Notes: generated by a model from the sequence alone, not told the origin. A stretch of DNA of 64,000 bases from Nanobdellota archaeon (GCA_021791655.1 JAJYWD010000001.1:32655-96654); one strand, 5' to 3'; shown: positions 32,777-63,595, counted from the first letter of the stretch. A program made the numbers and translations.

Positions 32777-32911
32777 CAGCATAGCGCTGCGCATAAAGTA
32801 CCTAGAATCAAGTATCTCATTTATCAACAACTCGCGACTTAATAAGTCGCTGCACGCATTTAGAAATAAAAGATAAGATTAAATATGCCACAGTATTATA
32901 ATAAAAATAAT

Positions 32912-33502
32912 ATGCAGCTAGAACGCACATTGGTCGTTGTTAAACCTGACGGCGTAAAGAGGAGACTCATCGGTAAGATAATCCAGAGACTAGAAGAGGC
33001 GGGTTTAAAACTGGTTGCTCTAAAGATGTTTACGCCGTCGGTAGACCTTGTAAAAAGTAACTATCCCGAAAGCGATGAATGGTTTAAGAAGGCTGGAGAC
33101 AGAAGTATAAACACTTTCAAGGAGATGGGCGTGAATATAGAGCAGAAATTCGGCACTGATAATCCAATAGAAGTCGGTAAAATAATAAAGAAGTGGATAG
33201 TACGATTTATGACCTCTGGGAATGTAGTGGCTATGGTTTGGGAAGGAAACAGGGCGGCAGATAACGTCAGGCGTTTGATAGGCGAGACAGATCCGTTAAA
33301 GGCGCAGCCTGGAACCATAAGGGGGGATTTTTCGGTGGATAACGTCATACTGGGAAACAGTTCGAATAGACCTATGGCAAATGTCGTTCACGCTTCTGGC
33401 AATAGAGAAGAGGCACTAACCGAGATTCCACTGTGGTTTAAGTCGGAGGAGATTCTCAGATACACGCGGGAAGGGGAGGATGCATTTTACAAGCAATGGT
33501 AA
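32912..33502 (+). CDS. ndk: Nucleoside diphosphate kinase-like protein with internal insertion (paralogue 1)
   Basis: N-terminus MQLERTLVVVKPDGVKRRLIGKIIQRLEEAGLKLVALKM matches the NDK N-terminus and His region NVVHASGN. A roughly 45-aa insertion is present relative to the canonical roughly 150-aa NDK. The raw ORF begins 27 nt upstream (32885). Confidence 0.7.
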   Translation: MQLERTLVVVKPDGVKRRLIGKIIQRLEEAGLKLVALKMFTPSVDLVKSNYPESDEWFKKAGDRSINTFKEMGVNIEQKFGTDNPIEVGKIIKKWIVRFMTSGNVVAMVWEGNRAADNVRRLIGETDPLKAQPGTIRGDFSVDNVILGNSSNRPMANVVHASGNREEALTEIPLWFKSEEILRYTREGEDAFYKQW

Positions 33503-34029
33503 CTTCAGAAAAAACGTTCGTGATGATAAAACCCGATGCAATTTCTCGAGGATTGGTGGGTGAGATAGTGGGGCGTTTCGAGCGTGCAGGCCTAAATATA
33601 ATAAAGATGAACATGGTACGGCTCGAAAGAGTGAAAGCAGAAGCTCTCTATCAATCTGATGAAGCGTGGCTTAACATGCTGACTTCTAAGGCTAAAGAAG
33701 CATTCGAAGCAGTCGGTGATAAGCTTGAGATAGGAGATACACTTACTTACGGTAAGCAGATAAGGGCGTGGCTCATAGATTATGTCACCTCAGGGCCAGT
33801 AATTCTCATGGTAATAGAAGCGACTAAAGCAGTATCTGTTGTCAGAAAGCTCGTAGGTTCAACAGACGCGTCAATTGCTGCGGCTGGAACGGTAAGGGGA
33901 GATTTGTGTAGCGATTCGCTTTATGTAGCAAATGTAGAAAAGCGCGCTATAAAGACGCTACTTCATGCCTCTGGTAACCTAAAGGAAGCGAAAAGGGAAA
34001 TCTCCTTGATGTTCGGAGACCCTGTATAA
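33496..34029 (+). CDS. ndk: Nucleoside diphosphate kinase-like protein with internal insertion (paralogue 2)
   Basis: 177 aa, TFVMIKPDAISRGLVGEIVGRFERAGLNIIKMNMV, with His region TLLHASGN. Overlaps paralogue 1 by 7 nt. Confidence 0.7.
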   Translation: MVTSEKTFVMIKPDAISRGLVGEIVGRFERAGLNIIKMNMVRLERVKAEALYQSDEAWLNMLTSKAKEAFEAVGDKLEIGDTLTYGKQIRAWLIDYVTSGPVILMVIEATKAVSVVRKLVGSTDASIAAAGTVRGDLCSDSLYVANVEKRAIKTLLHASGNLKEAKREISLMFGDPV

Positions 34030-38876: not shown

Positions 38877-40043
38877 TTATGCGCGTCTTTTTCCCCGTCT
38901 TACCGCAGTATCAAGGTTTTTATCAAACAGTGTTATGAACTTTGCGTCGTCATATCTCGGCGATTTCAAAGCCCCTGCCACCAACCGCTTGTAAAGCCTT
39001 TTGTCTAACACTTTCTCCATAGCCGATGCGATGCTATCGGGGTCGTCGTTTACCAGTAGTCCGTTTGTACCGTTTTTTATGAACTCACGTGGTCCGCCCT
39101 CATTTATGCATATGACTGGTTTACCGTATGCGAGGGATTCCAGCGGAACGAATCCAGTGTCTTCATTAAACGCGAGAAACAGCGTAGCGTAGCATTCTCT
39201 ATATAGTCTCGAAACCATTTTATCGTCTATGTTTTTCATCACTATTACGCTGTTATCACCCGCGGACAGCTCTTTTATCCGTTCAAAGTAGCCCTCGTCC
39301 TCTGCAAATCCGCTAAGAACAAGCTTGAATCCCCTGCTTTTGAGACTAGACGCTTTAAACGCAGAGATAGCCAGATCCTGCCTTTTGTAGTCGATATATC
39401 TGCTGTTATAAAGCAAGAACTTCTTGGTCGTTTTCGACCTTGAAACGCGAGTGTAGTTTATGTGCGGTCTATCTTTCAGTATGTGCGATGCGTCGATAAG
39501 CCCGGCAGCGAGAAGGCGTTTCTTGACCTCTTCGCTGTGTACGAATGCAAAATCTACCTTTTTCCAAGCCGCTCGCTCAAGAAGCCTGTATACACTTACG
39601 AATAAAGGCAGCTCAATTTTGTACGCTAAACTTTGCTTCTTGTAATAATCGTACATATTATGGGCTATTCTTAATGGTGTGTGAGTCATGGCTATAGTAA
39701 CGATTTTGCTAACGTCCCTGTTTAATAGTATAAGTTCGGATATGCCGGCCGTCGATATTACTAAGGCATCATACCTAGACAAATCAATGTTAGCAGAGCG
39801 CGAGTCCTTTAGGAACAGCGCCCCCCTCAATATCAATGAGCGTCTTACCTTTTTGCCGTAATCGGTAATCTTGAATCTCTTGTATTCATCGAATGTAAGA
39901 CTCTGGTTAAACGAAAGGGTATAAACGTCTATGTCGTGTCTGCTTCCCTTTAATAGGGCTAAAATCGTACGTTCTATTCCGCCCTTACTTTTTATCCAGG
40001 GCACGAAAAGCGCCACCCGCAACTTCTTTTTAATCATATGCAC
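38877..40043 (-). CDS. GT4-family glycosyltransferase
   Basis: 388 aa GT-B fold. The C-terminal EDTGFVPLESLAYGKPVI matches the GT4 E-x7-E region. Confidence 0.75.
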   Translation of the reverse strand: MHMIKKKLRVALFVPWIKSKGGIERTILALLKGSRHDIDVYTLSFNQSLTFDEYKRFKITDYGKKVRRSLILRGALFLKDSRSANIDLSRYDALVISTAGISELILLNRDVSKIVTIAMTHTPLRIAHNMYDYYKKQSLAYKIELPLFVSVYRLLERAAWKKVDFAFVHSEEVKKRLLAAGLIDASHILKDRPHINYTRVSRSKTTKKFLLYNSRYIDYKRQDLAISAFKASSLKSRGFKLVLSGFAEDEGYFERIKELSAGDNSVIVMKNIDDKMVSRLYRECYATLFLAFNEDTGFVPLESLAYGKPVICINEGGPREFIKNGTNGLLVNDDPDSIASAMEKVLDKRLYKRLVAGALKSPRYDDAKFITLFDKNLDTAVRRGKRRA

Positions 40044-40717
40044 ACCGCACTGAATACATTGTAGTTTCCTGCTACTATGTACACATGGTACTGCGACGCA
40101 GATTGGCTTAGCGACAAGCTACCGGAGTAGGTTCCAGAAGTGGATGCCTCCCGCTGGCTACCGGCAAATGTACCGCCCGCGGTATAAGCTGAGATATTAA
40201 AGGTAACATCCTTCACCAGTATGTCATTCACGCTCAGGAACTGCAGGTCGTAATTTAGCGCGCTTCCGCTAACAGAATATGACGCATTTATGAATGCGAG
40301 TGGGGCGTCTATCCAGTTCTGCACTGTAAGATTATCCTCGTAGAGTGCAGCTTTAGCGTAGAATGTGTACAATCCTGGCAACAGTGGTAGAACGCCACTT
40401 ATGTTTACTGTGGTCGGCCTTATAGAGGAAGTAGTATCACTGCCAATCTTTACAAATTTACCGCAGAATAGAGAGTTAGTATAGTTTATTGTTCCCACCT
40501 TTACCTGAAATGCGATGCTGGAGCCCAATCCCTGCGACGCTACGTAATCGGCTTCCGTCGCTATCTGGCCCACAGCAGTGTCATATGAAGCATATGTTAC
40601 CCCGCTGCTGTATGCGTAATAGTATACGACTGCAAATACCACAAGTGCGAAAACTATAAACATAGCTATGCCTGTTATAACCAAATACTCAGTTGAGAAT
40701 TGTGCCCCTTTATCCAT
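40034..40717 (-). CDS. Pilin-like surface protein with class III (prepilin) signal peptide
   Basis: 227 aa. MDKG|AQFSTEYLVITGIAMFIVFALVVF carries a [K]G cleavage motif, a QxSxEY DUF361-like start and a hydrophobic helix. The mature part is Ser/Thr- and sequon-rich. It overlaps the GT4 start by 10 nt. Confidence 0.55.
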   Translation of the reverse strand: MDKGAQFSTEYLVITGIAMFIVFALVVFAVVYYYAYSSGVTYASYDTAVGQIATEADYVASQGLGSSIAFQVKVGTINYTNSLFCGKFVKIGSDTTSSIRPTTVNISGVLPLLPGLYTFYAKAALYEDNLTVQNWIDAPLAFINASYSVSGSALNYDLQFLSVNDILVKDVTFNISAYTAGGTFAGSQREASTSGTYSGSLSLSQSASQYHVYIVAGNYNVFSAVCI

Positions 40718-42866: not shown

Positions 42867-43144
42867 GTGTTCTTCTTTGTGGCTACTACGGCTAGATTTA
42901 TTTCCTTATTTATGGCCTGGCCTGGCAGACCTCTCCGGAATCTGACAACGACGCGGCCAGAATCCCCGTGTGGATGCATAACCACTCCTATTATGTAGGC
43001 TTTTGAGAACTTTATCTGTACCTTTTTACCGGTGTACTCCTTTGCTTTATCCCTGTCGTTAACACCGTCGATTTTGACTATTACTTGATTTACTCTCTGT
43101 GTCTTCCTCCCGCGCCTAAACGATACTATCTTCATCATAGTCAC
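42863..43144 (-). CDS. rpl35ae: 50S ribosomal protein eL33 (L35Ae)
   Basis: 93 aa. …KIVSFRRGRKTQRVNQVIVKIDGV…KFSKAYIIGVV… matches L35Ae. Confidence 0.8.
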   Translation of the reverse strand: MTMMKIVSFRRGRKTQRVNQVIVKIDGVNDRDKAKEYTGKKVQIKFSKAYIIGVVMHPHGDSGRVVVRFRRGLPGQAINKEINLAVVATKKNT

Positions 43145-44217
43145 TGCTTGGGCTGATAGTTGCCCTTTTGTTCCGTGGCTTTCAGAGACTCCTTGTCTAT
43201 TATCGGGTGAGGCGCACCTTTCTTTTCTCGCTCTTTGTCAAGGACTTTCATTATCTTATCAACCACTTCCTTTGCTTCGGTATACTTCTTGTGGAATTCC
43301 TCACCGTTGACTCTCTTTATTTCTCCGTGCTCGATGCTTTTGTACCACTTTATAACATCGTCCGCTTTGGTTACGTCCTCCTTTGTTAGTAGCTTTTCTT
43401 TTTCAACTGCAGCGGCCAGCAATCCGTTCGTTGTCTCTTTTGGAACCGGTGGCAAGTATCCCAATTCCATAAGGAGGGCCTGCCCAGCAGCAACAACCGA
43501 ATCGAAAAGATCACGGGATAGCTTAGTAGACATTGTGTCTTCAGCCCACACAAGGAACGCCTCTGCGCTGCTCATGTTGCTGTCTATAGTCTCTCTGGTC
43601 GGTATAATACCACCGGCTTTGTAAAGCATTTGTATCGGTACGAAGTATCCCGTATCGTAGACTGCTACCCCGTCACGAAGCAGGGTCAGTATGACGGGAT
43701 TGGGCTTTATTATCGATGCCCAGAACTCTGCTAGAGGGTAAGTCTGAGCGTGTATCTTGTCCGAAAAATCCTTTGCTATCTCCGCCATTTTTACGAACAG
43801 CCTCTCTTTCAGCTGTTCGAGTGTGAATCTCTTTATATCGGTATCATCCACTATAAAAGCCACGTCTATATCGGACGAAGAAGTCATCCCAGTCTTTGTC
43901 TTCGAGCTTCCGAACACAACTATCGATTTTATGTATTTCCTGAAAAGACTGAGTACGCGCAGAAAATACGCCCTTAAGCTGTTGGCATCTTTCGCGCCCA
44001 AAACCTTGTTTAGGATGTCAAATGATACACCTGCAAGTTGTCCCGGTGGCTCGACATGTTCCGTCTGTTCTTCATCCCCGACATCAAGCCCGACAAAAGA
44101 GCCCATATAGTCAACTCTTTCATTGAGTTCATCGATCTTTGCGGACAACAGCTCTATAGTCGAGAACAACTTGTTTAATGCGGCTTCTGCAGGATTAACG
44201 TTTTGCGTCTGATTCAT
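43141..44217 (-). CDS. Pol-beta-superfamily nucleotidyltransferase (MNT/KNTase-like) with N-terminal coiled coil and C-terminal helical domain
   Basis: 358 aa. VVFGSSKTKTGMTSSSDIDVAFIVDD gives the GS…DxD minimal NTase motif. The C-terminal roughly 150 aa is helical and KNTase/HEPN-like, but no Rx4-6H motif was found. Confidence 0.6.
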   Translation of the reverse strand: MNQTQNVNPAEAALNKLFSTIELLSAKIDELNERVDYMGSFVGLDVGDEEQTEHVEPPGQLAGVSFDILNKVLGAKDANSLRAYFLRVLSLFRKYIKSIVVFGSSKTKTGMTSSSDIDVAFIVDDTDIKRFTLEQLKERLFVKMAEIAKDFSDKIHAQTYPLAEFWASIIKPNPVILTLLRDGVAVYDTGYFVPIQMLYKAGGIIPTRETIDSNMSSAEAFLVWAEDTMSTKLSRDLFDSVVAAGQALLMELGYLPPVPKETTNGLLAAAVEKEKLLTKEDVTKADDVIKWYKSIEHGEIKRVNGEEFHKKYTEAKEVVDKIMKVLDKEREKKGAPHPIIDKESLKATEQKGNYQPKQ

Positions 44218-44327: not shown

Positions 44328-46061
44328 ATGAACAAGAGAGAACTGGAGGAGTACTCGAAACTTATAGGAGACAAGCCGGGTGACTGGCTAAAGGAGCTAA
44401 GAAAGAGAGCCTCCACTCTAGATGCTCATTACAGCGGAAAGTTGAATGAATTCCGGTTTGCGGGGGGGAAAGAAGTTGCACCGACCGGGCTTTTGGGCAA
44501 TCCTAACGGCTTCTTCATGAGTAAGGATGTTCTTAAGCGACATCAGTTCCTTGGGGAATACATGTCATTTATACAGGAACTCAGCGCATTCGGCTATACT
44601 GATCGATTGAAAGAAATGGAAATCATAGATCCCAGTGCGATGTCAAATATGTTTACAATGATATTTGATAAGCGCAAGAACCTGGAAGACAGAACCATGC
44701 AGCTTTTGGGCAGCATAAATCAGGTTTTGAAGAGTGTAATCTCAATAATATACGAATTGAAGGAATTGGACAGGAACGTGTCCTTCTATGAAAAAGCTAA
44801 GGTTAAGGCCGACCCAAAGACCGCTGAGGCGGGCGAGCTTGGATTGAAGAGGATATTCATAGACAATGTTGACTCGAGAAAGCGCGAGGCCAGTCTTTTG
44901 TCCCTTTCGCGAGCGCCTTCCCAAGGGGGTGGCGGAGGCGGCGGATATATCGATATAGTGTCGGTCTTTTATTCTATAAAGAAACTTTCCGACATAGAAA
45001 CGCTCAACAGGAACGAGCAGTACAAGAACGTGTTGAAGAATAGATTCCTGGAATATGAGGACTGGAAGAAGCTGAGCGAAAAAGACCTCAAAACTAGAAG
45101 AGAAATGCTGTTGCAGTATCTTAAAAGTCAAAACGCTTCTTTCGAAATGTATCTGCAGTGGGCTTATCAGTACATGACGATACTTAAACGCATAAATCTA
45201 AAATCCTCAGGTATGAATGCAGGAAGCGCTGCCAGTGCTTATACAAACGCTTCTACCAATCTAGACGTTTCCGAATTCGCAGCCTTCACAGTAAACTTAG
45301 TAGCCGGCAAGCAGATTTTAATGAAGGAATACGACGTCTCATGGGAAAAGGCATTTGGAAACGCAGGTCCATTGATACCTGTGGCTGCTTCGCCAAAGTC
45401 ATCCTCTGTCACACTGGAAACCCGCGGAGGTAAGTTAAGTGAAAGAAGATTCATGTACGACAGAATAAAACAGTATGGTCCAAAAGTCATAGCAGCTATA
45501 GAGGCAGAATTTAAGTTTAAGGAAAAACCTTTCTTTTCTGAGCAGATGCCGCAGACCCCAATGCAGTACGAGGGCGCTCTGGACATAAGGCTTAATCCGT
45601 ATTGTTTTTCCTTGGATGAATGGTACCTGTTTAAAAAAGCGATACAGACGCAGGTGCAGAGTAGCGTCTTCAGCGGACTTGACAGCGTTTTGGTCACTTC
45701 CCTTAAACCTATGAAAGACGATCTGGACAAGTACATAAAAGAGGCAGAGAACCTTAATAAGCCCTCGGAAAAGGCGACACCTTCATTTGCCTTTTTAGAC
45801 ATATTCCAATCCTTCAGAGAGGATCTTCGTGGCATAACCAGCGAATTGTCTTCTGCGAAAGGCAGCAGTTCCGGTAAACGCGCGTCTGATTCACCAGAGA
45901 TGTATGAAATTGCCGTTAATAATCGATTGAATCGCTCCCTTCACAGGGATGCGCTGGCCCTGGGCACTTTCGTCGTCAACGAGGACGTGTCGTTGATATA
46001 CGAAGAAGCAAAGAGAAGATCGAAGTTGCTCAATAGTTTGGACCACACGGACATATTTTGA
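44328..46061 (+). CDS. Uncharacterised 577-aa soluble protein with internal Gly7 linker
   Basis: Long clean ORF with no TM segment, no Walker motifs and no domain I recognise. It heads a run of four tiny membrane-peptide genes. Confidence 0.5.
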   Translation: MNKRELEEYSKLIGDKPGDWLKELRKRASTLDAHYSGKLNEFRFAGGKEVAPTGLLGNPNGFFMSKDVLKRHQFLGEYMSFIQELSAFGYTDRLKEMEIIDPSAMSNMFTMIFDKRKNLEDRTMQLLGSINQVLKSVISIIYELKELDRNVSFYEKAKVKADPKTAEAGELGLKRIFIDNVDSRKREASLLSLSRAPSQGGGGGGGYIDIVSVFYSIKKLSDIETLNRNEQYKNVLKNRFLEYEDWKKLSEKDLKTRREMLLQYLKSQNASFEMYLQWAYQYMTILKRINLKSSGMNAGSAASAYTNASTNLDVSEFAAFTVNLVAGKQILMKEYDVSWEKAFGNAGPLIPVAASPKSSSVTLETRGGKLSERRFMYDRIKQYGPKVIAAIEAEFKFKEKPFFSEQMPQTPMQYEGALDIRLNPYCFSLDEWYLFKKAIQTQVQSSVFSGLDSVLVTSLKPMKDDLDKYIKEAENLNKPSEKATPSFAFLDIFQSFREDLRGITSELSSAKGSSSGKRASDSPEMYEIAVNNRLNRSLHRDALALGTFVVNEDVSLIYEEAKRRSKLLNSLDHTDIF

Positions 46062-46066
46062 GAGAT

Positions 46067-46237
46067 ATGCACAGCAAAGGACAAATGCCGGTAACAGAGG
46101 TTGTATCCATAATACTTGCCATAATAGTGTTTGTGGTCGGCGTAATAATCGCACTGTATCTCTCGCACACGGGAACCAATTTAGGGGCGGAGATAATGAA
46201 AGCACTCTCCTTTAGCTGGCTTTTTGGTGGTTTATGA
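46067..46237 (+). CDS. Small single-TM peptide with prepilin-like N-terminus (1 of 4)
   Basis: 56 aa, MHSKGQMPVTEVVSIILAIIVFVVGVIIALYL…. Its stop overlaps the next start (ATGA). Confidence 0.35.
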   Translation: MHSKGQMPVTEVVSIILAIIVFVVGVIIALYLSHTGTNLGAEIMKALSFSWLFGGL

Positions 46238-46413
46238 ATACCAGGGCTTCGGTCCCCGGGACTGTAATGGTTTATATAATCTTACTTATCGCGGGTATGA
46301 TAATTCTTATAATACTTTTCCAGTTGTTCACACCGTACAAGATAACTTCGCTGCTGGACGGACTTTTTAACTCCAGTGGCAAATTCACCAATAGTTCTGG
46401 GAGGCTGACATAG
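46234..46413 (+). CDS. Small single-TM peptide (2 of 4)
   Basis: 59 aa, MNTRASVPGTVMVYIILLIAGMIILIILF…, with a sequon-containing tail. Confidence 0.35.
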   Translation: MNTRASVPGTVMVYIILLIAGMIILIILFQLFTPYKITSLLDGLFNSSGKFTNSSGRLT

Positions 46414-46418
46414 ATAGC

Positions 46419-46571
46419 ATGTATAAACGGGGCGTCACCGATTTTGTCTGGATGCTTATAATAATCCTGATAATAAGTCTGGTAATAATATTGGTATATC
46501 TGCTTGTTTTCTCACCTTCGTTCTTGCTCGGCATACTGCCGCACGCGCCGTCAACGTCATCTGGCTATTGA
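46419..46571 (+). CDS. Small single-TM peptide with KRG-hydrophobic N-terminus (3 of 4)
   Basis: 50 aa, MYKRGVTDFVWMLIIILIISLVIILVYLL…. Confidence 0.35.
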   Translation: MYKRGVTDFVWMLIIILIISLVIILVYLLVFSPSFLLGILPHAPSTSSGY

Positions 46572-46572
46572 T

Positions 46573-46758
46573 ATGCTAACGCAAAAAAAGGGTGTGTTAG
46601 AGGCTTCTTTGTTCTATATAATCGCGATAATACTTGGTATAGTTCTTATAATAGTTTTCGTTTTGATTGCCGGTCCTAATCGTATCCTAGCCGCGATAAC
46701 GCAAGCCATCTCTGGTTTTGCCGGAACGATTTTTGGCGGACTCAACAGTACAATATGA
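46573..46758 (+). CDS. Small single-TM peptide with KKG-hydrophobic N-terminus (4 of 4)
   Basis: 61 aa, MLTQKKGVLEASLFYIIAIILGIVLIIVFVLIAG…. The raw ORF extends upstream from a TTG, but this ATG is 2 nt after the preceding stop. Confidence 0.35.
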   Translation: MLTQKKGVLEASLFYIIAIILGIVLIIVFVLIAGPNRILAAITQAISGFAGTIFGGLNSTI

Positions 46759-46880: not shown

Positions 46881-47459
46881 ATGCTTACCTATAACGATTT
46901 CATAAGGATAAGACGTAGCGAGCAAGAGGACAGTCGCGTCATAACCGACTTAACCGATAAACTAATCGAGGATATGAAGGATTACATCGCTTTAAGTAAA
47001 AGTGTTCTTGAGGAGGCTAAGAAAAACAGGGACGATAAGCGCGTCGAGGAAGTCTCAGCCCAGACAAAGAACGTAGTAAACTCGCTGACACAGATAATAA
47101 ACTTCCGCCTTATAAAGTTCGCGCAGATAGCAATATTCGGTTCTCCAATAGAACAGATGCGCCAGAAGATGTCCTCAAGCGAGCTGATATTTTTTGATAG
47201 TTTGCAGAATCTGATAAACGAGCACAAGAAGAGAGTGATAGGAGAAATAACGGACGTGACGCCCCGCGCGCCCGTTATGCAAGAGCAACCAGATGAAGAG
47301 AGTGCGGATAAGGTTGTCGTAAAGATAATAACTAACGTGCCACGTTTTGTCTGGAAAAATGATAAGTCATACGGCCCATTTTCTTTTCCGAGCGTCGTTG
47401 AGCTGGACAGGGACGTGGCTGATATTCTTATAAGGAGCGGAAAAGCCCAGAGTGCATAA
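46881..47459 (+). CDS. Hypothetical helical protein (possibly GINS-like; weak)
   Basis: 192 aa. Its stop overlaps the hef start by 1 nt. The C-terminal …FPSVVELDRDVADILIRSGKAQ resembles the B-domain ending of GINS subunits, but this is recollection only. Confidence 0.35.
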   Translation: MLTYNDFIRIRRSEQEDSRVITDLTDKLIEDMKDYIALSKSVLEEAKKNRDDKRVEEVSAQTKNVVNSLTQIINFRLIKFAQIAIFGSPIEQMRQKMSSSELIFFDSLQNLINEHKKRVIGEITDVTPRAPVMQEQPDEESADKVVVKIITNVPRFVWKNDKSYGPFSFPSVVELDRDVADILIRSGKAQSA

Positions 47460-48985
47460 TGTTCCTTGACAGATCTAAAATAGAAGAGCGTACGTATCAA
47501 ACCTCTATATTTGAGAATACTAAGGATAAAAACTCTCTAATAGTTCTACCAACGGGACTGGGTAAGACGATAATCTCTGCCATGCTTATAGATTACAGAC
47601 TGTCTGAGTTTCCCGGCTCTAGGGCACTGTTTCTTGCGCCCACTAAACCGCTGCTAAACCAGCACGGAAAGACGCTTTCAAGGCTGATGAACTTGAAGCT
47701 TGCAGTTGTGAGTGGCTCAGTCAGCAAGGCCGAGAGAGGGGGGACGTATAAAGATAACGACCTGATACTTGCGACGCCACAGACGATAGAGAATGACATT
47801 GCTTCCGATTTGATTGATTTGTCTGCATTCAGCATAATAATAGTCGATGAAGCGCATCATTCCATAGGCAACTACGCATACGTCAAGGTAGCGGATGAAT
47901 TCCTTCGCAGGTCCTCGAAACCTAACATAATCGGGTTGACGGCTTCTCCAGCCTCCGACCAAGGTAAGATAATGGAAATCTGCAAGAATCTGCACATATC
48001 AACAGTTGAAATACGCGGAGAGGATGACTCGGATGTGTCCCCATACATAAAGACAAAGATAGTACAGGAAGAACGGATTGAACTGCCGAAGGAAATAAAA
48101 AGTATAATCGCAGAAATAAAAGGGATAATCGCTGACCAAGTGACTGCGCTGAAGGGCGTAGGTATATTGGCGGAGGTCCCAGCCAGCAGGATAAACCGCG
48201 TGACTATCCTGAAAGTTCAGAACGGTCTAATAAAACGTCTTAGATCCGACAGGAAATCGTGGTACGCCATCCGCGGCATAATAATAACGTCTAAGATACT
48301 AAAACTGTACCACGCACTGAATCTTGTATCTACCCAGAGCGTAGAAGCCTTTTATTTATTCTTATCCCGGCTCATGGCTGGGAAAGCAAAATCCGATAAG
48401 GAGCTTGCGAAGTCCGAGGCCGTCGCACACGTAATCGAGTCCGCTAGGGCACTCTTGGACAACGGAGAAGAGACTCCCAAGATAGAAAGGCTTAAGGAGA
48501 TACTGCAAAAGTCCGTAACCAAGGATAAACGTGCGATAGTTTTTACCCAGTACAGGGACAATGTTGATGTATTGTACAAGTATCTATCTAAGATGGATGG
48601 AATACGGCCCGCTAAGTTCATAGGCCAGGGCAGGAAAGGGCTCTCCCAGAAAAATCAATTGGAGATAATAAGGCAGTTTGAGGAAGGGACGATCAACGTT
48701 CTTATCTCCACCAGCGTTAGCGAGGAGGGCATTTCTATCAAAGGTGTTGATACCGCCGTATTCTATGAGACAGTATCCAGTGCTATAAGGATGATACAAA
48801 GAAAAGGGAGGGTTGGCCGATTTGATGTCGGGAAGATATACCTTTTAATAGCGGAAGACACCAATGACGAGGGTTATTTCTGGCTCTCTAAGAGAAGAGA
48901 GAAAGCAATGAGGAAAATAGTGTCAAAGATAAAGGACAATCCTTCTATGATAACCAACGACGGCACGCTCCGACCTTTCACTTAG
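47459..48985 (+). CDS. hef: Hef/ERCC4-family SF2 helicase (helicase domains only, no nuclease domain)
   Basis: 508 aa. Walker A LPTGLGKT, DEAH box IIVDEAHHSIG, then motif VI QRKGRVGR. It ends directly after helicase domain 2. Confidence 0.8.
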   Translation: MFLDRSKIEERTYQTSIFENTKDKNSLIVLPTGLGKTIISAMLIDYRLSEFPGSRALFLAPTKPLLNQHGKTLSRLMNLKLAVVSGSVSKAERGGTYKDNDLILATPQTIENDIASDLIDLSAFSIIIVDEAHHSIGNYAYVKVADEFLRRSSKPNIIGLTASPASDQGKIMEICKNLHISTVEIRGEDDSDVSPYIKTKIVQEERIELPKEIKSIIAEIKGIIADQVTALKGVGILAEVPASRINRVTILKVQNGLIKRLRSDRKSWYAIRGIIITSKILKLYHALNLVSTQSVEAFYLFLSRLMAGKAKSDKELAKSEAVAHVIESARALLDNGEETPKIERLKEILQKSVTKDKRAIVFTQYRDNVDVLYKYLSKMDGIRPAKFIGQGRKGLSQKNQLEIIRQFEEGTINVLISTSVSEEGISIKGVDTAVFYETVSSAIRMIQRKGRVGRFDVGKIYLLIAEDTNDEGYFWLSKRREKAMRKIVSKIKDNPSMITNDGTLRPFT

Positions 48986-49406
48986 TTAGTATTACTTGGA
49001 ACTCACCACCAGGTCCATAGGAGCTTCCGCCGGTTGTATTGCATACGTAGCGCTCAGTTCCTGTAACCAACTCGGTAAAGCTAAGGCCCTTAAGTCCCGC
49101 CTCGTAGCTGCCTATTTTGCCAGAATTATTATAAAGCGAATATGTTAGTCCGGGACTTCCCTCCGAAGCATTTACCTGATAATAGCAGCTCTGTGTGTTG
49201 CAGCTTAGATTTGCCGCTGATATCTGGCAAGGCAACGGGCTGTTTCCTGAGGTCGGCGTGGTCTTTCCCAAGCCCGGTAACGATGCAATGAATGAATGAA
49301 ATATTATTATTATTGCAAATACGGCGAACGCTATGAGTATGATCAAGACGATTATCGTCTCTACAGCCGAAGCGCCGGCCTTATCGCCTAAGAAGTTTCT
49401 GCGCAT
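48978..49406 (-). CDS. Surface protein with prepilin-like N-terminus
   Basis: 142 aa. MRRNFLGDKAG|ASAVETIIVLIILIAFAVFAIIII (Glu at +5 after the Gly) is followed by a sequon/Cys-containing domain. It overlaps the upstream gene by 19 nt. Confidence 0.5.
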   Translation of the reverse strand: MRRNFLGDKAGASAVETIIVLIILIAFAVFAIIIIFHSFIASLPGLGKTTPTSGNSPLPCQISAANLSCNTQSCYYQVNASEGSPGLTYSLYNNSGKIGSYEAGLKGLSFTELVTGTERYVCNTTGGSSYGPGGEFQVILTK

Positions 49407-50869
49407 AAGTATATCTGATTTCTGCCTAGGAATGAAGTGGATCCCGTGTATAGACCCCCCAACGTCGTAATATAATTAAATATCCCCTCTGCGCACTGCT
49501 GCAAGCCGCTCGATGTAAGTAATGCTGTGCTTATTGCGTTTAGTATTGGGGGTATGATATATTGATTACATGGTTGATTAGAGGCGCAAGCTGCCGTAGC
49601 AAAACCACCCGCTACTGATGCGAGTGCGACTTTTCCCATTATAACTCCGCTATCACCAGTACCGCCTACGCCCAAAACTGCACCACTATAAACGATTATT
49701 GCTCTTGTGCACTCATCTCTTATGGAGTTAGTTGGATAGTTATTGAAAAACGTCTGCGGTGTGCACTCTTGCGGTAAAGAGACGGTCGCAGGTGGGAATC
49801 TAGTATTTGTGAACGAATTCATATAGACTAAATAAAGATCTGCGTGACTTATGCTCTGAGAAGAATTAATCCGACTGAAGTTCGATATGCCACTAGTCTT
49901 GTTTTTATAGCTGTATATGAGATCAAGGCCGGGCTTTAGGTAATTGAAATAGCTTTCATTTTCTATTGCGGTCGGATTTACCGATTCTGTGAGGAGACAA
50001 GACGGGGGCGATTGATAAGAGTCTATTGTGGGATTGTAATCCACCGTACAATTGTATACGCCTTCCGGGTTTTTAGTGCAGAAATTTTGATAGCTCTGCG
50101 TGCACGCGTCTATTTTATTATCGGTCGTGTTTACGCAGGATTGCTGTGAATCATTGAAATAGCACCCCTGCGACGGCTCGCACAGCTCTGTGGACATGTT
50201 TAGGCTGGCCGAGGGATTCGCCCCAGTGAGAGGGATGTGCGTAGTAACGTATCCTTGGTACACATTGTTATAATTCGGTTGCGTCTTGCAGATTGAATAA
50301 TTCAACTCAGTTTTTTGGCAAAGCGTAGGCGTATTGGTGTCGCACACGAAACCCTGCTGGTAGTTTGGACAGGCCTGTTGCGGCGTGTACCCTGTGCAAC
50401 TTATGTGCGAACTAAAGGTGCTGTCTTCCAGGTATTTGGTCAAATTATTGAATGTGATGTTCGTATTTGTGTTTATAGACAATACGCTGCAAAGTCGGGG
50501 CTGTGCGCTGACGACTAGGCTTTGGTTCGCCCCAAACTGGTACCAGCACGTCGATAATGCGGTGGTTATGCCCCCCAATGTCTGGGCCGGAGAGCTCTGG
50601 GAATCATAGTTTAGCGTTGATGTGCTACATCCCAACAGAGGAGGGACCAATCCAAGATTAGAAAGGGAAGAAGACAGGCAGAAGAATTGCGGCACTACGC
50701 ACAGATCTTGATAGAAGAAATTACGCACGTTGGAGCTGACGAAACAAGCGGAACCCGAAGCGAATCCGAAGCCGAGTATCAAAAAGTAGCCGAAAACTAC
50801 TATTATAACGAACGCTATGACCGCAAATAGTATGAGTAGTGCAGCCTTCTCCAAGCCGGTTTGAGCCAT
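49388..50869 (-). CDS. Cys-rich, sequon-rich secreted/membrane-anchored protein
   Basis: 493 aa with an N-terminal hydrophobic helix, about 30 Cys and many N-x-S/T sequons. No recognisable domain. Confidence 0.55.
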   Translation of the reverse strand: MAQTGLEKAALLILFAVIAFVIIVVFGYFLILGFGFASGSACFVSSNVRNFFYQDLCVVPQFFCLSSSLSNLGLVPPLLGCSTSTLNYDSQSSPAQTLGGITTALSTCWYQFGANQSLVVSAQPRLCSVLSINTNTNITFNNLTKYLEDSTFSSHISCTGYTPQQACPNYQQGFVCDTNTPTLCQKTELNYSICKTQPNYNNVYQGYVTTHIPLTGANPSASLNMSTELCEPSQGCYFNDSQQSCVNTTDNKIDACTQSYQNFCTKNPEGVYNCTVDYNPTIDSYQSPPSCLLTESVNPTAIENESYFNYLKPGLDLIYSYKNKTSGISNFSRINSSQSISHADLYLVYMNSFTNTRFPPATVSLPQECTPQTFFNNYPTNSIRDECTRAIIVYSGAVLGVGGTGDSGVIMGKVALASVAGGFATAACASNQPCNQYIIPPILNAISTALLTSSGLQQCAEGIFNYITTLGGLYTGSTSFLGRNQIYLCAETS

Positions 50870-50940
50870 ACCTCATATCCACACGGATAATTAAAATACT
50901 TTAGATTGCTAAAAGTGCCAACTGAATGGCAACTAAAACC

Positions 50941-52185
50941 TTAGCACGTGGCTAGATTGTTCCCGCTGCTCTGTACCGTTAAGGAGCCAGCAGGAGAATT
51001 TGTCGTTTCGTTCGGGTATTCTCCACTGACACTCGAACAGAAATAGCCGTTGGAATTCGTCGTGGCAGTTACTACCTGTTTCTGATAGCTTCCGCTATTT
51101 GGAAAGGATATGCTTATTGTTTGGCCGCTTGCCGGCACGCCGTTGTATAAAAGGGTGCCGTTTGCATACGTATAAGGACACAGCGCCCTCGGAGAGCAGT
51201 TGTGGAACCATTCCTTAGCGCTCGATACAACGTATCCAGAAGCGGTCGAGACAGTGGAATTTGTTACGCACACGAACACTCTGTCCTGCCCAACTGTCAT
51301 TGCATTTATAAGATACCCGCAGAACGATACAAAGTAAGCGTTCTGGCACACTTGCTGTGGGTTGGTAGAGCTTCCACCGAGTGCGAATTCGCCGTTTGTA
51401 AGCGAACTCACCGGCTCGTAGGCTTGGCTCACGGTGCTATTGCCAAAAGAACATGAGGAGTCTGGTACGGATGGCTGGCCGTACTGGCTAACGAACTGGC
51501 ACCTCTGGACGAAAGGCACGTAACAGCCGGTAGGTGGCTTGTTGTACGGGTATCCAAAGTAGGCCACCTGATAATTCGAATTGTTATAGACTATCTGGTT
51601 TAAATCAGGGTATGCCGCTGGACGAGGAGTCTGTGCACTCGATCCGTTCGTTATGAATACGATCTGCAGAGGATTTTGTGGTGAGTAATAATTCTGGTCT
51701 ATGTAATTTATGCCGTAAGCGAAAGTGGTTAAGTTGCTGGTCTCATAATTGTAGATCCTTCCCACATAACACGTGAATACGTTATTTAGTTCGTTGCTGC
51801 TTAGTAGGCTTATTCCGGTGCTGTAATCATTTCCTTGGAACAGGTTGAAGCACGACGACGCCTTAGTGTAAAGCTGATTGGCTATATCCGTCGTGCTGTA
51901 CGCGTTGATGTTACTTGTTTGAATGCATGCAGACTGCAGGGATGTCGCTCCGAATCCCGCTGGCGGCACAAGGTTCAGCGTGCTTCCAAAGGAATACAGG
52001 AGGGAAAACGCGGGGTTATTTATTACGCTGTACGCCAGAAAATCGAAATAACATTTTATCCCGAAACTTTGAGCCCCAACCGACGTTCCAAGTACGAAAA
52101 CGAACGTAAACAGGATGACGGCGGCTATGATTATGAGTACCAGCTCCAGAATAACCGATACAGTTGGAAAAGCTATCGCCATCAT
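50941..52185 (-). CDS. Cys-rich, sequon-rich secreted/membrane-anchored protein
   Basis: 414 aa. MMAIAFPTVSVILELVLIIIAAVILF recalls the bacterial pseudopilin FTLIELLVV segment. The rest is Cys- and sequon-rich. Confidence 0.55.
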   Translation of the reverse strand: MMAIAFPTVSVILELVLIIIAAVILFTFVFVLGTSVGAQSFGIKCYFDFLAYSVINNPAFSLLYSFGSTLNLVPPAGFGATSLQSACIQTSNINAYSTTDIANQLYTKASSCFNLFQGNDYSTGISLLSSNELNNVFTCYVGRIYNYETSNLTTFAYGINYIDQNYYSPQNPLQIVFITNGSSAQTPRPAAYPDLNQIVYNNSNYQVAYFGYPYNKPPTGCYVPFVQRCQFVSQYGQPSVPDSSCSFGNSTVSQAYEPVSSLTNGEFALGGSSTNPQQVCQNAYFVSFCGYLINAMTVGQDRVFVCVTNSTVSTASGYVVSSAKEWFHNCSPRALCPYTYANGTLLYNGVPASGQTISISFPNSGSYQKQVVTATTNSNGYFCSSVSGEYPNETTNSPAGSLTVQSSGNNLATC

Positions 52186-52340
52186 CTGCCTCCGAATATG
52201 TTGGATAAAGTCGAAAACGGCGAGGCGCCGTGTATGCTAGCGTAATATACGGCGTAGACTATCAGTATAGCGACAGCCAAGGAAACCAGCACCACTATCA
52301 GCCATATCACTCTCCATTCTAGACTGCCCTTTGGGTTCAT
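52182..52340 (-). CDS. Small single-TM peptide with KG-SLE prepilin-like start
   Basis: 52 aa, MNPKGSLEWRVIWLIVVLVSLAVAILIV…, not in the supplied ORF track (below 60 aa). Its stop overlaps the start of the 414-aa gene, and its start is 2 nt after the upstream stop. Confidence 0.35.
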   Translation of the reverse strand: MNPKGSLEWRVIWLIVVLVSLAVAILIVYAVYYASIHGASPFSTLSNIFGGR

Positions 52341-52341
52341 A

Positions 52342-52857
52342 TCATTGTCCTGCGCAAGGCGGGCAGAACTTGCTGTCGCCCGCTACGCACGTGGGGATGT
52401 TTATCGCACAGTTCTCTATGTTGGTGGAATTGTCCGCGACTATCGTGCTTTTCTGGCAGCTTTCCAGCGCTGCAGTATTTGCCGGAGAAAGGTCTCTACA
52501 GCCCTGTATGACTTGCGGATATGCAGAAGGGAACTGTATGCAAGTCTGTACGTTCGTTACTTCGGAACCTGGTTGTTTTGATAGATAATAGCACCAGTGG
52601 GTTATGCACGTCTGATTGGCTGTCGCTTGGTCGTAACATGCGTCCGTTAGGTAACACCTGAAAAGAGGCGTGCCTTCCATTCTGTTCGCGTAGCCGTATT
52701 CTGCCTGCGTGAACTGGTTTTCGATTATGTTATTATTGTTACATCCGACGGGGAAGACTGGGGAAAAATCAGCCAGGAATACGTAAAATATCACCACTAT
52801 CACTATAACTGCGAACACTACTCCTATCAGTATGAATTCCTCTACATTCTCCTGCAT
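52342..52857 (-). CDS. Cys-rich membrane-anchored protein
   Basis: 171 aa, MQENVEEFILIGVVFAVIVIVVIFYVF, followed by about 14 Cys including a C-terminal CPPCAG. Confidence 0.5.
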   Translation of the reverse strand: MQENVEEFILIGVVFAVIVIVVIFYVFLADFSPVFPVGCNNNNIIENQFTQAEYGYANRMEGTPLFRCYLTDACYDQATANQTCITHWCYYLSKQPGSEVTNVQTCIQFPSAYPQVIQGCRDLSPANTAALESCQKSTIVADNSTNIENCAINIPTCVAGDSKFCPPCAGQ

Positions 52858-53393: not shown

Positions 53394-53834
53394 TCAGTTG
53401 GTAACCTGTCCTTTTATCGCTATAGTCTGACTGAATGAGCTGTTTGACGGGGTATAGGTAATTATTATTTGTGCGTTGAAATTGGAGGGCAGCGAAACCG
53501 TTAGGTTGCACGAATCTGAATCCAAGGGCGGCATGTACGCCGGCAGTGTGGTTTCGCACGTGAACGCGTTCGAATTCACGCTTCCAGAGACGAATGAAAT
53601 TCCGTCAACGTTTATATTCTCATTCAGCAGATTTTGGAAATCCAGGGAAAACGTGCCGCCAGAGTATCCCTGCGATACTATCTTTAAACCCTGGAATCCG
53701 CTTACCGTGGGTGTGCTATACGGTGAGAACAAAGCTGGGTCAAGCACGAATATTAATGCGACTGCAAAGCCTACTATGAAAAGGACAATTCCATAAATCG
53801 TAAGATACTCGAGTGCGCTTTGACCAATCCTCAT
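53394..53834 (-). CDS. Archaeal type IV pilin-like protein (DUF361-like N-terminus)
   Basis: 146 aa, MRIG|QSALEYLTIYGIVLFIVGFAVALIF. This is the classic archaeal prepilin Q-x-S-x-E-Y start, followed by a small beta-rich domain. Confidence 0.6.
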   Translation of the reverse strand: MRIGQSALEYLTIYGIVLFIVGFAVALIFVLDPALFSPYSTPTVSGFQGLKIVSQGYSGGTFSLDFQNLLNENINVDGISFVSGSVNSNAFTCETTLPAYMPPLDSDSCNLTVSLPSNFNAQIIITYTPSNSSFSQTIAIKGQVTN

Positions 53835-54127: not shown

Positions 54128-54844
54128 TCATATGCCTCTACGTATAGTGTCCGCTAATTTAAGGAATTCCTTTGATGCCCTGCTCCTAGAATTTAGGTGA
54201 GTGACCGGCATGCCGCTGTTTAGCGCATCCGTCAGTTTATCGTCCTCCGATATCGTACCGATTACATCGCCACCCATAGACAGCACCGCATTTTCCGCAA
54301 GTTTCTGCTTTCGTCTATTAGATCTATTTACGATTATCCCCAGCAATTTTATCGCGTTTTCTCTCAGTTCCTTTGCTAGCTCTTTTGCTTCCAACAAGGA
54401 TGTAAGGTCCGGGTTTACAACTACCACTATCTCTGCATTTGGTATAAGCCTGATAAAGTCGATGTCAGTTGCAGGTCTGGTGTCGATTATCACGAAATCG
54501 TAACTGTTAACGACCCGGCCTATGTGAAAGAACAGGTTTATCAGCTGGTAATTTGCCGCTTTATCGCCCTTTTTCCTGAATACACGCGATGGCAGAATAT
54601 CCAGCCCGTATCGTGTATGGTATATGGCGCGGTCCACCTGTACAATACCATTGAGCACGTCCTGCAGGGCCATTTCGTAGTCATCGAGCCCATAGTGCAC
54701 GGCTATGTGCGAGGTCTCCATATTCGCATCTATAAGAAGCACCCTAGACTTTTTTGTCGCTAGTGCGGATGCTAGATTCGCCGAAACGGTAGTTTTTCCG
54801 ACGCCGCCCTTTCTCGACATTATCACTATTATTCTGGCGACCAT
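54128..54844 (-). CDS. ParA/MinD-family P-loop ATPase
   Basis: 238 aa with the deviant Walker A SRKGGVGKTT and Walker B FVIIDT. Confidence 0.85.
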   Translation of the reverse strand: MVARIIVIMSRKGGVGKTTVSANLASALATKKSRVLLIDANMETSHIAVHYGLDDYEMALQDVLNGIVQVDRAIYHTRYGLDILPSRVFRKKGDKAANYQLINLFFHIGRVVNSYDFVIIDTRPATDIDFIRLIPNAEIVVVVNPDLTSLLEAKELAKELRENAIKLLGIIVNRSNRRKQKLAENAVLSMGGDVIGTISEDDKLTDALNSGMPVTHLNSRSRASKEFLKLADTIRRGI

Positions 54845-61218: not shown

Positions 61219-61860
61219 ATGCGCGCGCAGTTCTCATCAGAATTCGTGATAGACGCTTCTATAGTGGTGATAGTGGTCAGTTTTCTACTGCTTTTCTTTA
61301 GTCCGTTGCTAAGCCAGAACACCGGCTCCATTTATCTTTCTTCTGCCTGCACTGAAGTAGCGGATTCTGTCAATACCGTCGCCGACTCAAACGGCGCATC
61401 TGCGATAATATACACCCCGCTGCTTAACGAGACGCCGTTCGGTTATTACAATGTTACCCTATCAAACGGCATAATCACGGTATATTCGAATCTTTCCAGG
61501 TACACCACGCAGCTGGTCTCCTGCGGCGCCGACACTTATAGAACGGGCAGTGAGAGCTTCCTGCTGTCCAATCTCGCTGTTTATTCGTCTGGCAGTACGG
61601 TTGGTGCCGCTTACCTTTACGGCAGCAGCGCAAGTTCCAGTGCGCCGCCCTCGGTGATTTACGGGGGGGGTTTCCAGTCCTCGGTCACCTTGTACTTGAT
61701 CAGCGCTGCCTCTTACATCAAAAACTATTCGGAGTCGCAATCGTTCTCTCAGAGTGTTAGTTCGGAGATCTCGACATTAGCTGATGGCAGTTATGCTTTC
61801 TTAGCAGTGCAGAATAACAATACGCGCATAAGGGTCTTGTTCCCGTTCTCAAAGGGTTAA
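61219..61860 (+). CDS. Pilin-like surface protein (class III signal, QFSSEF start)
   Basis: Start chosen at MRAQFSSEFVIDASIVVIVVSFLLLFF. The mature part is Ser-rich with sequons. The raw ORF starts 60 nt upstream. Confidence 0.5.
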   Translation: MRAQFSSEFVIDASIVVIVVSFLLLFFSPLLSQNTGSIYLSSACTEVADSVNTVADSNGASAIIYTPLLNETPFGYYNVTLSNGIITVYSNLSRYTTQLVSCGADTYRTGSESFLLSNLAVYSSGSTVGAAYLYGSSASSSAPPSVIYGGGFQSSVTLYLISAASYIKNYSESQSFSQSVSSEISTLADGSYAFLAVQNNNTRIRVLFPFSKG

Positions 61861-61963
61861 ACCGGTTTCTTGAGTTATAGTGCATACAATATAAATGATT
61901 GCAATGACTTTTACATCGACAGCAAAAGGATAGGTTTAAATATGGTAGATCAGTAATTATGAT

Positions 61964-62434
61964 ATGCCAAAAAATGCCCAATCAGCATTAGAGTACATGA
62001 TGACCTATGGCTGGGCGATACTTATCATCGTCATAGTGGCCGCGGTCCTGTACAGTCTAGGCATTTTCAATCCAAGCAGCAGCGCTGGCAATACGGCTAG
62101 CGGCTTTGGCGGCTTTACGGTGCAGCAGGGTGGATTCACGTGCAATTCTACTGGCGTGTTCCTAGCATTAGGAAACTCGCAAGGTACGCAAGTTACAGTG
62201 CTAAACGCAAGTATAACGTCTTCAACTGGTTTGAGTACCCCTACGGGTAGCAATGGTTCTATCAATAAACTTGTAAATCCGCAGAGTACGATTACAATAA
62301 AATTCACATCAAACACCTGTTCCATCACTGGTGCAAGATACAGCGCTAACATACAGATCTATTACAGTACGACTGGAGCTCTAGGCACACAAACACAGCC
62401 GACTACCGGTACAATCTCAGGATCTTCCAGTTGA
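61964..62434 (+). CDS. Archaeal type IV pilin-like protein (DUF361-like N-terminus)
   Basis: 156 aa, MPKNA|QSALEYMMTYGWAILIIVIVAAVL, with a Thr/Ser-rich mature domain containing sequons. Confidence 0.55.
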   Translation: MPKNAQSALEYMMTYGWAILIIVIVAAVLYSLGIFNPSSSAGNTASGFGGFTVQQGGFTCNSTGVFLALGNSQGTQVTVLNASITSSTGLSTPTGSNGSINKLVNPQSTITIKFTSNTCSITGARYSANIQIYYSTTGALGTQTQPTTGTISGSSS

Positions 62435-63391: not shown

Positions 63392-63522
63392 ATTAAAAGC
63401 AGACGCTGACTTAAATAAAATTTGTTTTTAGCATAGCGTGCTGTATTAACTTATTTTTGTAAGTTATCACAGCGCTTTAAAAAGTAAGTATATAATAAAC
63501 AAAATCGCTTTTATCTGATTGT

Positions 63523-63595
63523 GCCCCGATAGTCTAGAGGCCAAGGACATCGCCCTTTCGAGGCGATGACCCGGGTTCGAATCCCGGTCGGGGCA
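63523..63595 (+). tRNA. tRNA-Glu (anticodon UUC)
   Basis: GCCCCGATAGTCTAGAGGCCAAGGACATCGCCCTTTCGAGGCGATGACCCGGGTTCGAATCCCGGTCGGGGCA. All four arms pair, with anticodon loop CTTTCGA and T-loop TTCGAAT. Confidence 0.85.

Follow-up and report, generated by a model that had tools for sequence, protein, structure and literature searches.

A stretch of 64,000 nucleotides (nt) from the genome of a Nanobdellota archaeon (GCA_021791655.1, JAJYWD010000001.1:32655-96654), referred to here as the window, carries on its plus strand a gene for a protein of 577 amino acids (aa) that is followed by four very small genes, which we call s1 to s4, each encoding a peptide with a single hydrophobic helix. In this study, we report that s1-s4 are real genes under purifying selection, that the motif at the N-terminus of their products is constrained at the protein level, that they are paralogous to a fifth gene of the window, s5, and that they lie near canonical prepilins. 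A reading made from the sequence of the window alone (the sequence-only reading) had compared the layout of the four genes with that of tandem Flp/Tad-type mini-pilin genes and of archaeal minor pilins. The best explanation that we can offer has, in our judgement, an even chance of being correct. According to this explanation, s1-s5 would be helix-only proteins with class III signals that are processed by FlaK and built, together with large Cys-rich pilin-like neighbours, into a structure resembling a type IV pilus, and we propose that these proteins are confined to the Parvarchaeum/ARMAN-4/5 family.

The source of the window is an archaeon of the Parvarchaeota (ARMAN-4/5-like, DPANN). Its 577-aa protein is 43-56% identical to the 39 closest homologs, and the named ones among these belong to metagenome-assembled genomes of Candidatus Parvarchaeota, Parvarchaeum or Acidifodinimicrobium. 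An identical locus is also present on contig DAHWOI010000002.1 of assembly GCA_027335275.1. ARMAN-type Parvarchaeota are uncultivated nano-archaea, and the comparisons described below draw on a scan of one genome per species, which yielded 36 loci, including those of ARMAN-4 (L031) and ARMAN-5 (L035). Hidden Markov models (HMMs) of s1-s4 were built from the first five of these loci.

Conservation of the four genes and of their N-terminal motif

The 577-aa open reading frame (44328-46061, plus strand) and the four packed genes of 50-61 aa are present exactly where the sequence-only reading had placed them. All four lie on the plus strand. The first, s1 (46067-46237), encodes 56 aa beginning with MHSKG↓QMPVTE, in which the arrow marks the predicted cleavage site, and has a conserved C-terminal SFSWL[FY]G. 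The product of s2 (46234-46413) has 59 aa, begins with MNTRA↓SVPG and carries a conserved FTPYK after its helix. The product of s3 (46419-46571) has 50 aa, begins with MYKRG↓VTDF and ends in a Pro-rich tail with the C-terminal signature FSPS..LIP.VP. The last, s4 (46573-46758), encodes 61 aa beginning with MLTQKKG↓VLEAS, with (V/A)GP and FF.G conserved in the tail (signature VGP...FF.G). The packing is as tight as had been described: 5 nt separate the 577-aa gene from s1, s1 and s2 overlap in an ATGA, s2 and s3 are 5 nt apart, and a single nucleotide lies between s3 and s4. The described layout of the peptides also holds for the families as a whole, each peptide consisting of a short charged or basic N-terminus, one uncharged stretch (with a family median of 24-29 residues) and a short tail.

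Conservation and synteny, which had been suggested as a check, are clear. The four genes form four families of 1:1 orthologs, whose order is identical in the 31 loci (of 36) that have them, and they persist in relatives with a 577-aa protein that shares only 43-56% identity with that of the window. In 30 of these 31 loci, as in the window, s1-s4 directly follow the 577-aa gene, which we call arrangement A; in the remaining one (L007, on the same contig as L001), the block is inverted. The five loci outside this count comprise three of the Acidifodinimicrobium type, which are without the peptides, and two whose contigs stop at the 577-aa gene. Each family has a conserved C-terminal signature of its own. 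The ratio of nonsynonymous to synonymous substitution rates (dN/dS), estimated by the method of Nei and Gojobori, is 0.23 for s1, 0.09 for both s2 and s3, and 0.11 for s4. The mean pairwise identity is 53-64% within the peptide families (s5 included), compared with 57% for the 577-aa protein and 47-55% for the neighbouring pilin-like proteins. Because four orthologous families retain a constant order among diverged relatives at dN/dS values of 0.09-0.23, the array is far beyond chance.

Therefore, hardly any credence is left for the view that the small reading frames are chance hydrophobic frames in an AT-rich spacer and no genes at all. That some gene callers skip s3 and s4 would suit such a view, which is nevertheless refuted by the conservation at the protein level, by the low dN/dS, by the family-specific C-terminal motifs and by an Rfam scan that found four tRNAs and no match at the s1-s4 locus. 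A Shine-Dalgarno-like motif lies upstream of just one to seven starts per peptide family, which speaks neither for nor against the genes. Scans with bacterial-type promoter and terminator models remained at chance level, such models being irrelevant for an archaeal host.

The sequence-only reading had also expected that routine annotation would miss three of the four genes. This expectation is partly correct: it has some force for the contigs that carry the identical 577-aa protein, and all four genes are called in other relatives. In the public gene calls of the identical locus (L051, 4758-5086; L052, 4758-5431; both with the sequence of the window), s1 is started at an internal Met and called as 50 aa without its leader, s3 is omitted, and s4 is present in one of the two records and omitted from the other. 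Routine gene calling mis-starts or skips these genes.

Archaeal prepilin peptidases need Gly, Ala or Ser at position -1, a charged residue at -2, and a cleavage site that precedes a hydrophobic H-domain (PMC4371748). The class III character that had been read into the N-termini of the peptides is supported by their orthologs, which share a strictly conserved [K/R][G/A]-hydrophobic N-terminus with the archaeal class III layout. Our statistics refer to distinct leader-bearing sequences, which number 29 for s1, 32 for s2, 32 for s3, 13 for s4 and 23 for s5 (129 in total). Position -1 is G or A in 129 of 129 (29/29 in s1, 32/32 in s2, 32/32 in s3 and 23/23 in s5), and position -2 is K or R in 119 of 129 (29/29 in s1, 25/32 in s2, 31/32 in s3, 11/13 in s4 and 23/23 in s5). 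The leader mostly has five residues (M-x-K-K-G) and is followed by the uncharged stretch; the predicted mature peptides would have 41-56 aa, with tails of 15-25 residues. All of s1-s5 combine a small residue at -1, a charged residue at -2 and a short leader before an uncharged H-domain; s1-s3 and s5 bear the leader in every member, and s4 does not.

At position -1, all four Gly codons as well as Ala codons are used, and AAA, AAG, AGA and CGN occur at -2. Because the choice among Gly and Ala codons is free, the constraint at -1 acts on the translated residue. Moreover, because the motif is constrained at the protein level, the leader of s1 is part of the translation product, and the public start call is at odds with this. 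A separate observation concerns the ATG at 46085, which encodes Met +2 of the predicted mature s1 and is kept in 28 of 29 orthologs; this Met could give s1 an alternative start without the leader, comparable to that of the leaderless s4 proteins described below.

Two of the cleavage sites that had been guessed from the single sequence had to be revised. For s1, the guess was KGQ↓M, and the alignment of orthologs gives a conserved KG↓Q; for s2, the guess was PG↓T, and the alignment gives RA↓S, which is aligned with the KKG↓S and KKA↓S of relatives. Downstream of the revised sites, s1 has Q or E at +1 and E at +6, and s3 has D or E at +2/+3 followed by Y or F at +4. An N-x-S/T sequon is found in the C-terminal tail of 18 of the 32 s2 sequences, which would fit an external C-terminus.

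A fifth paralog and its pilin-like neighbours

The fifth gene, s5 (52182-52340, minus strand), was found with the HMMs of s2 and s3. It encodes 52 aa (MNPKG↓SLEWR...SPFS..FGG), has 24 orthologs with a dN/dS of 0.16, and carries E at +3 in 21 of 23 sequences. The gene lies between genes for 171 and 414 aa in a pilin-like operon (48978-52857, minus strand) that is transcribed in the order 171 aa, s5, 414 aa, 493 aa and 142 aa, and the operon is kept beside the block of s1-s4, GINS and helicase genes in relatives. The N-termini of the larger products are KG↓ASAVEY in the 142-aa family, which is the classical G↓xxxxEY motif, MAET(P/G/A)G↓E... in the 493-aa family, MEEG↓ILL... in the 414-aa family and MQENVEEFILIG... 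in the 171-aa family, the last three having acidic or neutral mini-leaders.

Profile-profile alignments were scored against reversed controls. Among themselves, the profiles of s1-s5 score 23-51, compared with 14-33 for the controls. Furthermore, in-register alignments of the s1, s2 and s5 profiles with the N-terminal ends of the 142-aa family and of a 227-aa family encoded elsewhere in the window score 23-35, compared with 14-17 for the controls. This 227-aa class III signal protein (40034-40717, minus strand) begins with MDKGA↓QFSTEYL, and [KR][GA]↓Q[YF][ST].EY is invariant in its orthologs. Other canonical pilin-like proteins of the window are one of 146 aa (53394-53834, minus strand; MRIG↓QSALEYL, from translation) and two of 213 aa (MRA↓QFSSEF) and 156 aa (MPKNA↓QSALEYM), whose genes lie at 61219-62434 on the plus strand according to translations and public gene calls.

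The 493-, 414- and 171-aa proteins (49388-52857, minus strand) are secreted, very Cys-rich and rich in Asn, Ser and Thr, and they have an N-terminal hydrophobic helix; the 493-aa protein of the window itself begins with MAETPG↓E. No family match was obtained for any of the three, and they may be tip or adhesin-type pilins.

Downstream of s4 on the plus strand are the genes for GINS51 (46881-47459; Pfam Gins51_C) and for a Hef-like helicase (47459-48985; helicase domains). These two housekeeping genes move with s1-s4 when the block is inverted, which is the case in L001/L007 (8288-9557) and in an independent metagenomic contig, L049 (812-3658). In this arrangement B, s1-s4 follow pilin-like genes, with the 493-aa and 142-aa genes 7-31 nt upstream of them, and the 577-aa and helicase genes are convergent. 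In the 13-kb loci of the Acidifodinimicrobium type (L013, L014 and L037), the 577-aa gene is directly followed by a convergent helicase gene; the locus has neither the peptides nor GINS51 nor any of the pilin-like operon, and in their place it has genes for unrelated membrane proteins of 334 aa and ~500 aa. Because of the inversions and the Acidifodinimicrobium-type loci, the peptides keep company with the pilin-like genes no less closely than with the 577-aa gene.

The functional linkage of the peptides to the 577-aa gene that the sequence-only reading had envisaged is, by these comparisons, positional only. A rival explanation that builds on this linkage, and that we consider improbable, holds that the 577-aa protein and s1-s4 form one module in which the peptides, as membrane anchors or partners, would bring the soluble 577-aa scaffold to the membrane of Parvarchaeum-type archaea. 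The distance from the stop of the 577-aa gene to the start of s1 is at most 9 nt in all but one of the arrangement A genomes, this arrangement prevails among the peptide-bearing loci, and no obvious space is left for a separate promoter, which makes co-transcription of the genes probable. However, the gap between s4 and the GINS gene is ~32 nt in most genomes, and because this gap is also small, tight packing is the norm here and uninformative. Furthermore, the 577-aa family is far wider than the peptides (254 clusters) and occurs without s-like peptides in the loci of Rehaiarchaeum and of distant DPANN archaea. The inversions in L001/L007 and L049 break the adjacency, separating the peptides from the 577-aa gene and leaving them with GINS and the helicase downstream of the pilin-like genes, and the Acidifodinimicrobium-type loci keep the 577-aa gene with neither the peptides nor GINS nor the pilin-like operon nearby.

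A proposed pilus-like assembly and the alternatives

According to the explanation that we favour, that of processed pilin-like subunits, each peptide would be made with its leader of about five residues (M-x-K-K-G) and inserted into the membrane with the N-terminus inside. The FlaK-type class III signal peptidase of the lineage would then cut after the invariant G or A and leave a mature peptide of 41-56 aa, which would comprise one hydrophobic helix, an acidic residue near the new N-terminus and a short external tail. Helix packing would place the mature peptides, together with the 142-, 493-, 414- and 171-aa proteins, in the core or base of a filament resembling a type IV pilus, and assembly of this filament would fall to the single pilus ATPase/TadC pair, whose genes lie elsewhere in the genome. 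The cleavage, the incorporation into a filament and the partnership with the large pilin-like proteins are the steps that we infer.

The relevant machinery has been tabulated for the lineage. FlaK (K07991) occurs in 41 of 44 genomes, including those of ARMAN-4 and ARMAN-5; all 44 have the ATPase arCOG01818, TadC (arCOG01812) is entered in the Parvarchaeum columns, and most have FleN (arCOG00589); no Parvarchaeales column contains the pilin arCOG03871, and only one contains the pilin arCOG02420 (Table S6, PMC10134863). Because FlaK, the ATPase and TadC are tabulated and the two pilin arCOGs are nearly absent, the lineage has a processing and assembly machine with essentially unannotated subunits, and the class III proteins of the window would be obvious candidates for these subunits.

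Several observations weigh against this explanation. The first is the lack of pilus machinery in the neighbourhood: the 64-kb window and 10 kb beyond each of its ends contain no pilus ATPase, no TadC/PilC and no A24 peptidase, and no T2SSE, T2SSF or Peptidase_A24 domain was found. Only a MinD/FleN-type ATPase is encoded nearby (54128-54844, minus strand; Pfam AAA_31, CbiA and ParA); ATPases of this type commonly accompany archaeal type IV pilus loci (PMC4858521). The second is the result of a Pfam scan of 45 peptide members, in which no pilin or class III family (Flp_Fap, Class_IIIsignal, Flp1_like or TadE) was matched and no family of any kind matched more than 3 of the 45. A Flp1_like match in one member reached 16 bits, compared with a cut-off of 33.5. 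The Pfam test is weak here, the canonical pilins of the window likewise having given no Pfam match.

The residues that follow the predicted site also depart from the canonical pattern. The acidic residue is at +2/+3 in s3, s4 and s5 or at +6 in s1 and is missing in most s2 sequences; it is not at +5, and in s5, W occupies +4 and R occupies +5. The G↓xxxxEY motif of Flp is not carried by the peptides and is found, as KG↓xxxxEY, in the neighbouring 142-aa and 227-aa families. In addition, the alignment of s3 and s4 to the N-termini of the large prepilins is no better than that of the reversed controls.

The behaviour of s4 cuts both ways. The leader is present in 13 of 31 distinct s4 orthologs; the other 18, which make up the ARMAN-4/5 clade, are leaderless, start at ME[SA][VI]WFY and have no upstream in-frame start codon. 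These leaderless proteins cannot be substrates of the peptidase. They begin one residue past the predicted mature N-terminus of the leader-bearing s4 proteins, a start that would fit a leader that is removable and dispensable. Finally, the single-copy, fixed-order, housekeeping-like conservation of the peptides looks more like that of the subunits of a defined complex than like that of major pilins, which evolve fast and vary in copy number.

A rival explanation, which strikes us as rather unlikely though worthy of serious attention, makes use of these same observations. In this case, s1-s5 would be uncleaved single-pass membrane proteins that form or tune a defined, non-filament hetero-oligomeric complex, and K-K-G would serve only to set the topology (positive inside), with a small residue at the interface. 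Such a complex would be in keeping with the strict 1:1 orthology, the fixed order and the moderate, housekeeping-like conservation, with the lack of a Pfam pilin match and of pilus machinery nearby, with the leaderless state of 18 of the 31 distinct s4 sequences, and with the failure of s3 and s4 to resemble the large prepilin N-termini above control. However, a topology signal leaves unexplained why G or A is invariant in 129 of 129 sequences from five diverged families with free codon choice. Moreover, the same motif is present in the neighbouring canonical KG↓xxxxEY proteins, and s5 is embedded among them.

The comparison with Flp/Tad-type pilins or archaeal minor pilins with which the sequence-only reading had started stands in part. 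The class III layout, the position of s5 among pilin-like genes, and the tabulated FlaK, ATPase and TadC of the lineage speak for it, and the absence of a match to any Pfam pilin family, the absence of machinery nearby and the loss of the s4 leader in about half of the lineages speak against it.

Among known systems, the Epd pilins of Methanococcus provide one point of comparison. Their processing sites are of the type KGQ[VIL] (PMC4371748), and the Epd major pilin (arCOG06620) has no globular domain, like its bacterial Tad/Flp counterparts, with the Epd-type system 1 occurring in DPANN (bioRxiv 10.64898/2026.04.22.720090). The peptides share with Epd-type pilins (M. maripaludis EpdE/MMP1685) the very short length, the lack of a globular domain and the basic leader ending in KG, and the KG↓Q of s1 matches the Epd site type. 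However, the Epd pilins have ~70 aa, E at +5 and an assignment to Class_IIIsignal/arCOG06620, whereas the peptides have 46-62 aa, D or E at +2/+3 or +6, and no Pfam match; furthermore, the Epd pilins are variable paralogs, whereas the peptides constitute five fixed, non-interchangeable families.

The bacterial Flp/Tad system (Flp_Fap; tandem flp genes upstream of tadV-rcp-tad) resembles the array in its mature single-helix subunits of 40-60 aa, which are often encoded in tandem, and in its type of cleavage site, a Gly before a hydrophobic helix, as predicted for the peptides. Unlike Flp/Tad pilins, the peptides have no Flp_Fap match, no G↓xxxxEY and no adjacent tad-like genes, and they belong to an archaeal host with a FlaK-type peptidase. 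With archaeal minor pilins (FlaFind-type rules), they have in common G or A at -1, a charged residue at -2, a site before the H-domain and the clustering with class III proteins; known minor pilins possess an external globular domain of at least 100 aa, whereas the peptides have a tail of 15-25 residues only. The peptides thus resemble Epd/Flp-type mini-pilins in their proposed working but match no Pfam pilin family by sequence.

Several other classes of small membrane proteins were considered and rejected. The peptides are without the hinge and amphipathic helix of TatA, and their transmembrane segment is N-terminal, not C-terminal as in SecE/Sec61beta. Holins and type I toxins were rejected because the array is an ancient, syntenic part of the chromosome and gave holin-type matches only sporadically and below threshold.

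The 577-aa protein, the wider window and implications

The sequence-only reading had recognised no domain in the 577-aa protein, and no match was obtained in Pfam, NCBIfam, PADLOC or PHROGs, nor in a profile search of PDB sequences. A run of seven Gly that it had pointed out is indeed present at residues 200-206 but is merely a G-rich loop in relatives. At E ≤ 1e-3, an exhaustive search retrieved 254 clusters (50% identity), among which proteins of 450-550 aa predominate, and a profile search with a 92-sequence alignment retrieved the close family only; the alignments of the distant homologs are too divergent for the locus scan. The AlphaFold2 model, computed with the 92-sequence alignment, is confident, with a predicted local distance difference test score (pLDDT) of 87.3 and a predicted template modelling score (pTM) of 0.79; it shows four long helices (26-59 residues) and two regions of beta-sheet. 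A Foldseek comparison of this model with PDB and BFVD returned nothing at E ≤ 1e-3, with TM-scores of at most 0.18.

The invariant or nearly invariant residues across the wide family are mostly hydrophobic or aromatic, and no acidic residue is invariant, which suggests a structural rather than a catalytic role. We regard the 577-aa protein as a separate, cytoplasmic and probably non-enzymatic protein with a DPANN-wide distribution, which would have no more in common with the peptides than a compact transcription unit. As a soluble orphan with a DPANN-wide distribution that can be folded confidently and has no structural relative in PDB or BFVD, it is a good target for the characterisation of genomic dark matter.

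The divergent neighbour of the 577-aa gene encodes an MNT-like nucleotidyltransferase of 358 aa (43141-44217, minus strand; Pfam Polbeta/NTP_transf_2 and a weak NCBIfam MntA match), which is the best-conserved protein of the neighbourhood (mean pairwise identity of 81% vs 71% for L35Ae). The trio of 577-aa protein, nucleotidyltransferase and L35Ae recurs, with the same divergent arrangement of the first two, in Rehaiarchaeum (L042) and in the related locus L041; in L043, which is more distant, a nucleotidyltransferase and L35Ae are likewise encoded near the 577-aa homolog. Convergent cytoplasmic genes follow this homolog in L041 and L042, and no s-like peptide was found in the L041, L042 and L043 loci.

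Makarova, Wolf and Koonin (2019) described DPANN-specific "dark matter" families that include cls.004340 and cls.004259 (PMC6393860). Going by its description, the 577-aa family fits cls.004340 (NEQ484, alpha-helical, housekeeping context; PMC6393860): it is DPANN-wide, helix-rich and unannotated and has a housekeeping context (L35Ae, aminoacyl-tRNA synthetase, TFB and Trm1) beside an MNT-type nucleotidyltransferase. Unlike the "alpha helical" cls.004340, however, the 577-aa protein has a mixed alpha/beta AlphaFold2 model. The nucleotidyltransferase of the window, likewise going by description, probably corresponds to cls.004259 (NEQ050, MNT-HEPN; PMC6393860).

Three further features of the window concern other subjects. 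A tRNA-Glu gene lies at 63522-63596 on the plus strand, and beyond the end of the window (L044, 5632-9350) there are genes for a phage-type integrase and for a 924-aa protein without a family match; this region may be an integrated element. At 32885-33502 and 33496-34029 on the plus strand, two genes for nucleoside diphosphate kinase lie in tandem and overlap, and because the nucleoside diphosphate kinase model matched in two stretches, each gene carries an insertion. At 17445-18308 on the minus strand, a 287-aa protein with two central transmembrane segments and a C-terminal coiled coil is encoded, which has a weak, below-threshold CdvA-like Pfam match (E 3e-4).

ARMAN cells have been seen to contact cells of Thermoplasmatales by means of pili-like structures (PMC5864196). 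A bolder extension of the processed-subunit explanation, to which we would give little chance, is that the five helix-only subunits build a heteromeric filament core or membrane conduit that is this pili-like link of ARMAN to its Thermoplasmatales hosts, the 577-aa protein having been recruited in Parvarchaeum as a cytoplasmic scaffold. If this were true, the conduit or filament would be unlike any described type IV filament in having five fixed, non-redundant mini-subunits and large Cys-rich tip proteins. With 41-56 aa in the mature form, s1-s5 would be the shortest archaeal pilin-like proteins known. The locus and its neighbours provide a concrete candidate set of about a dozen class III signal proteins, and these are testable targets for the host-contact apparatus of ARMAN.

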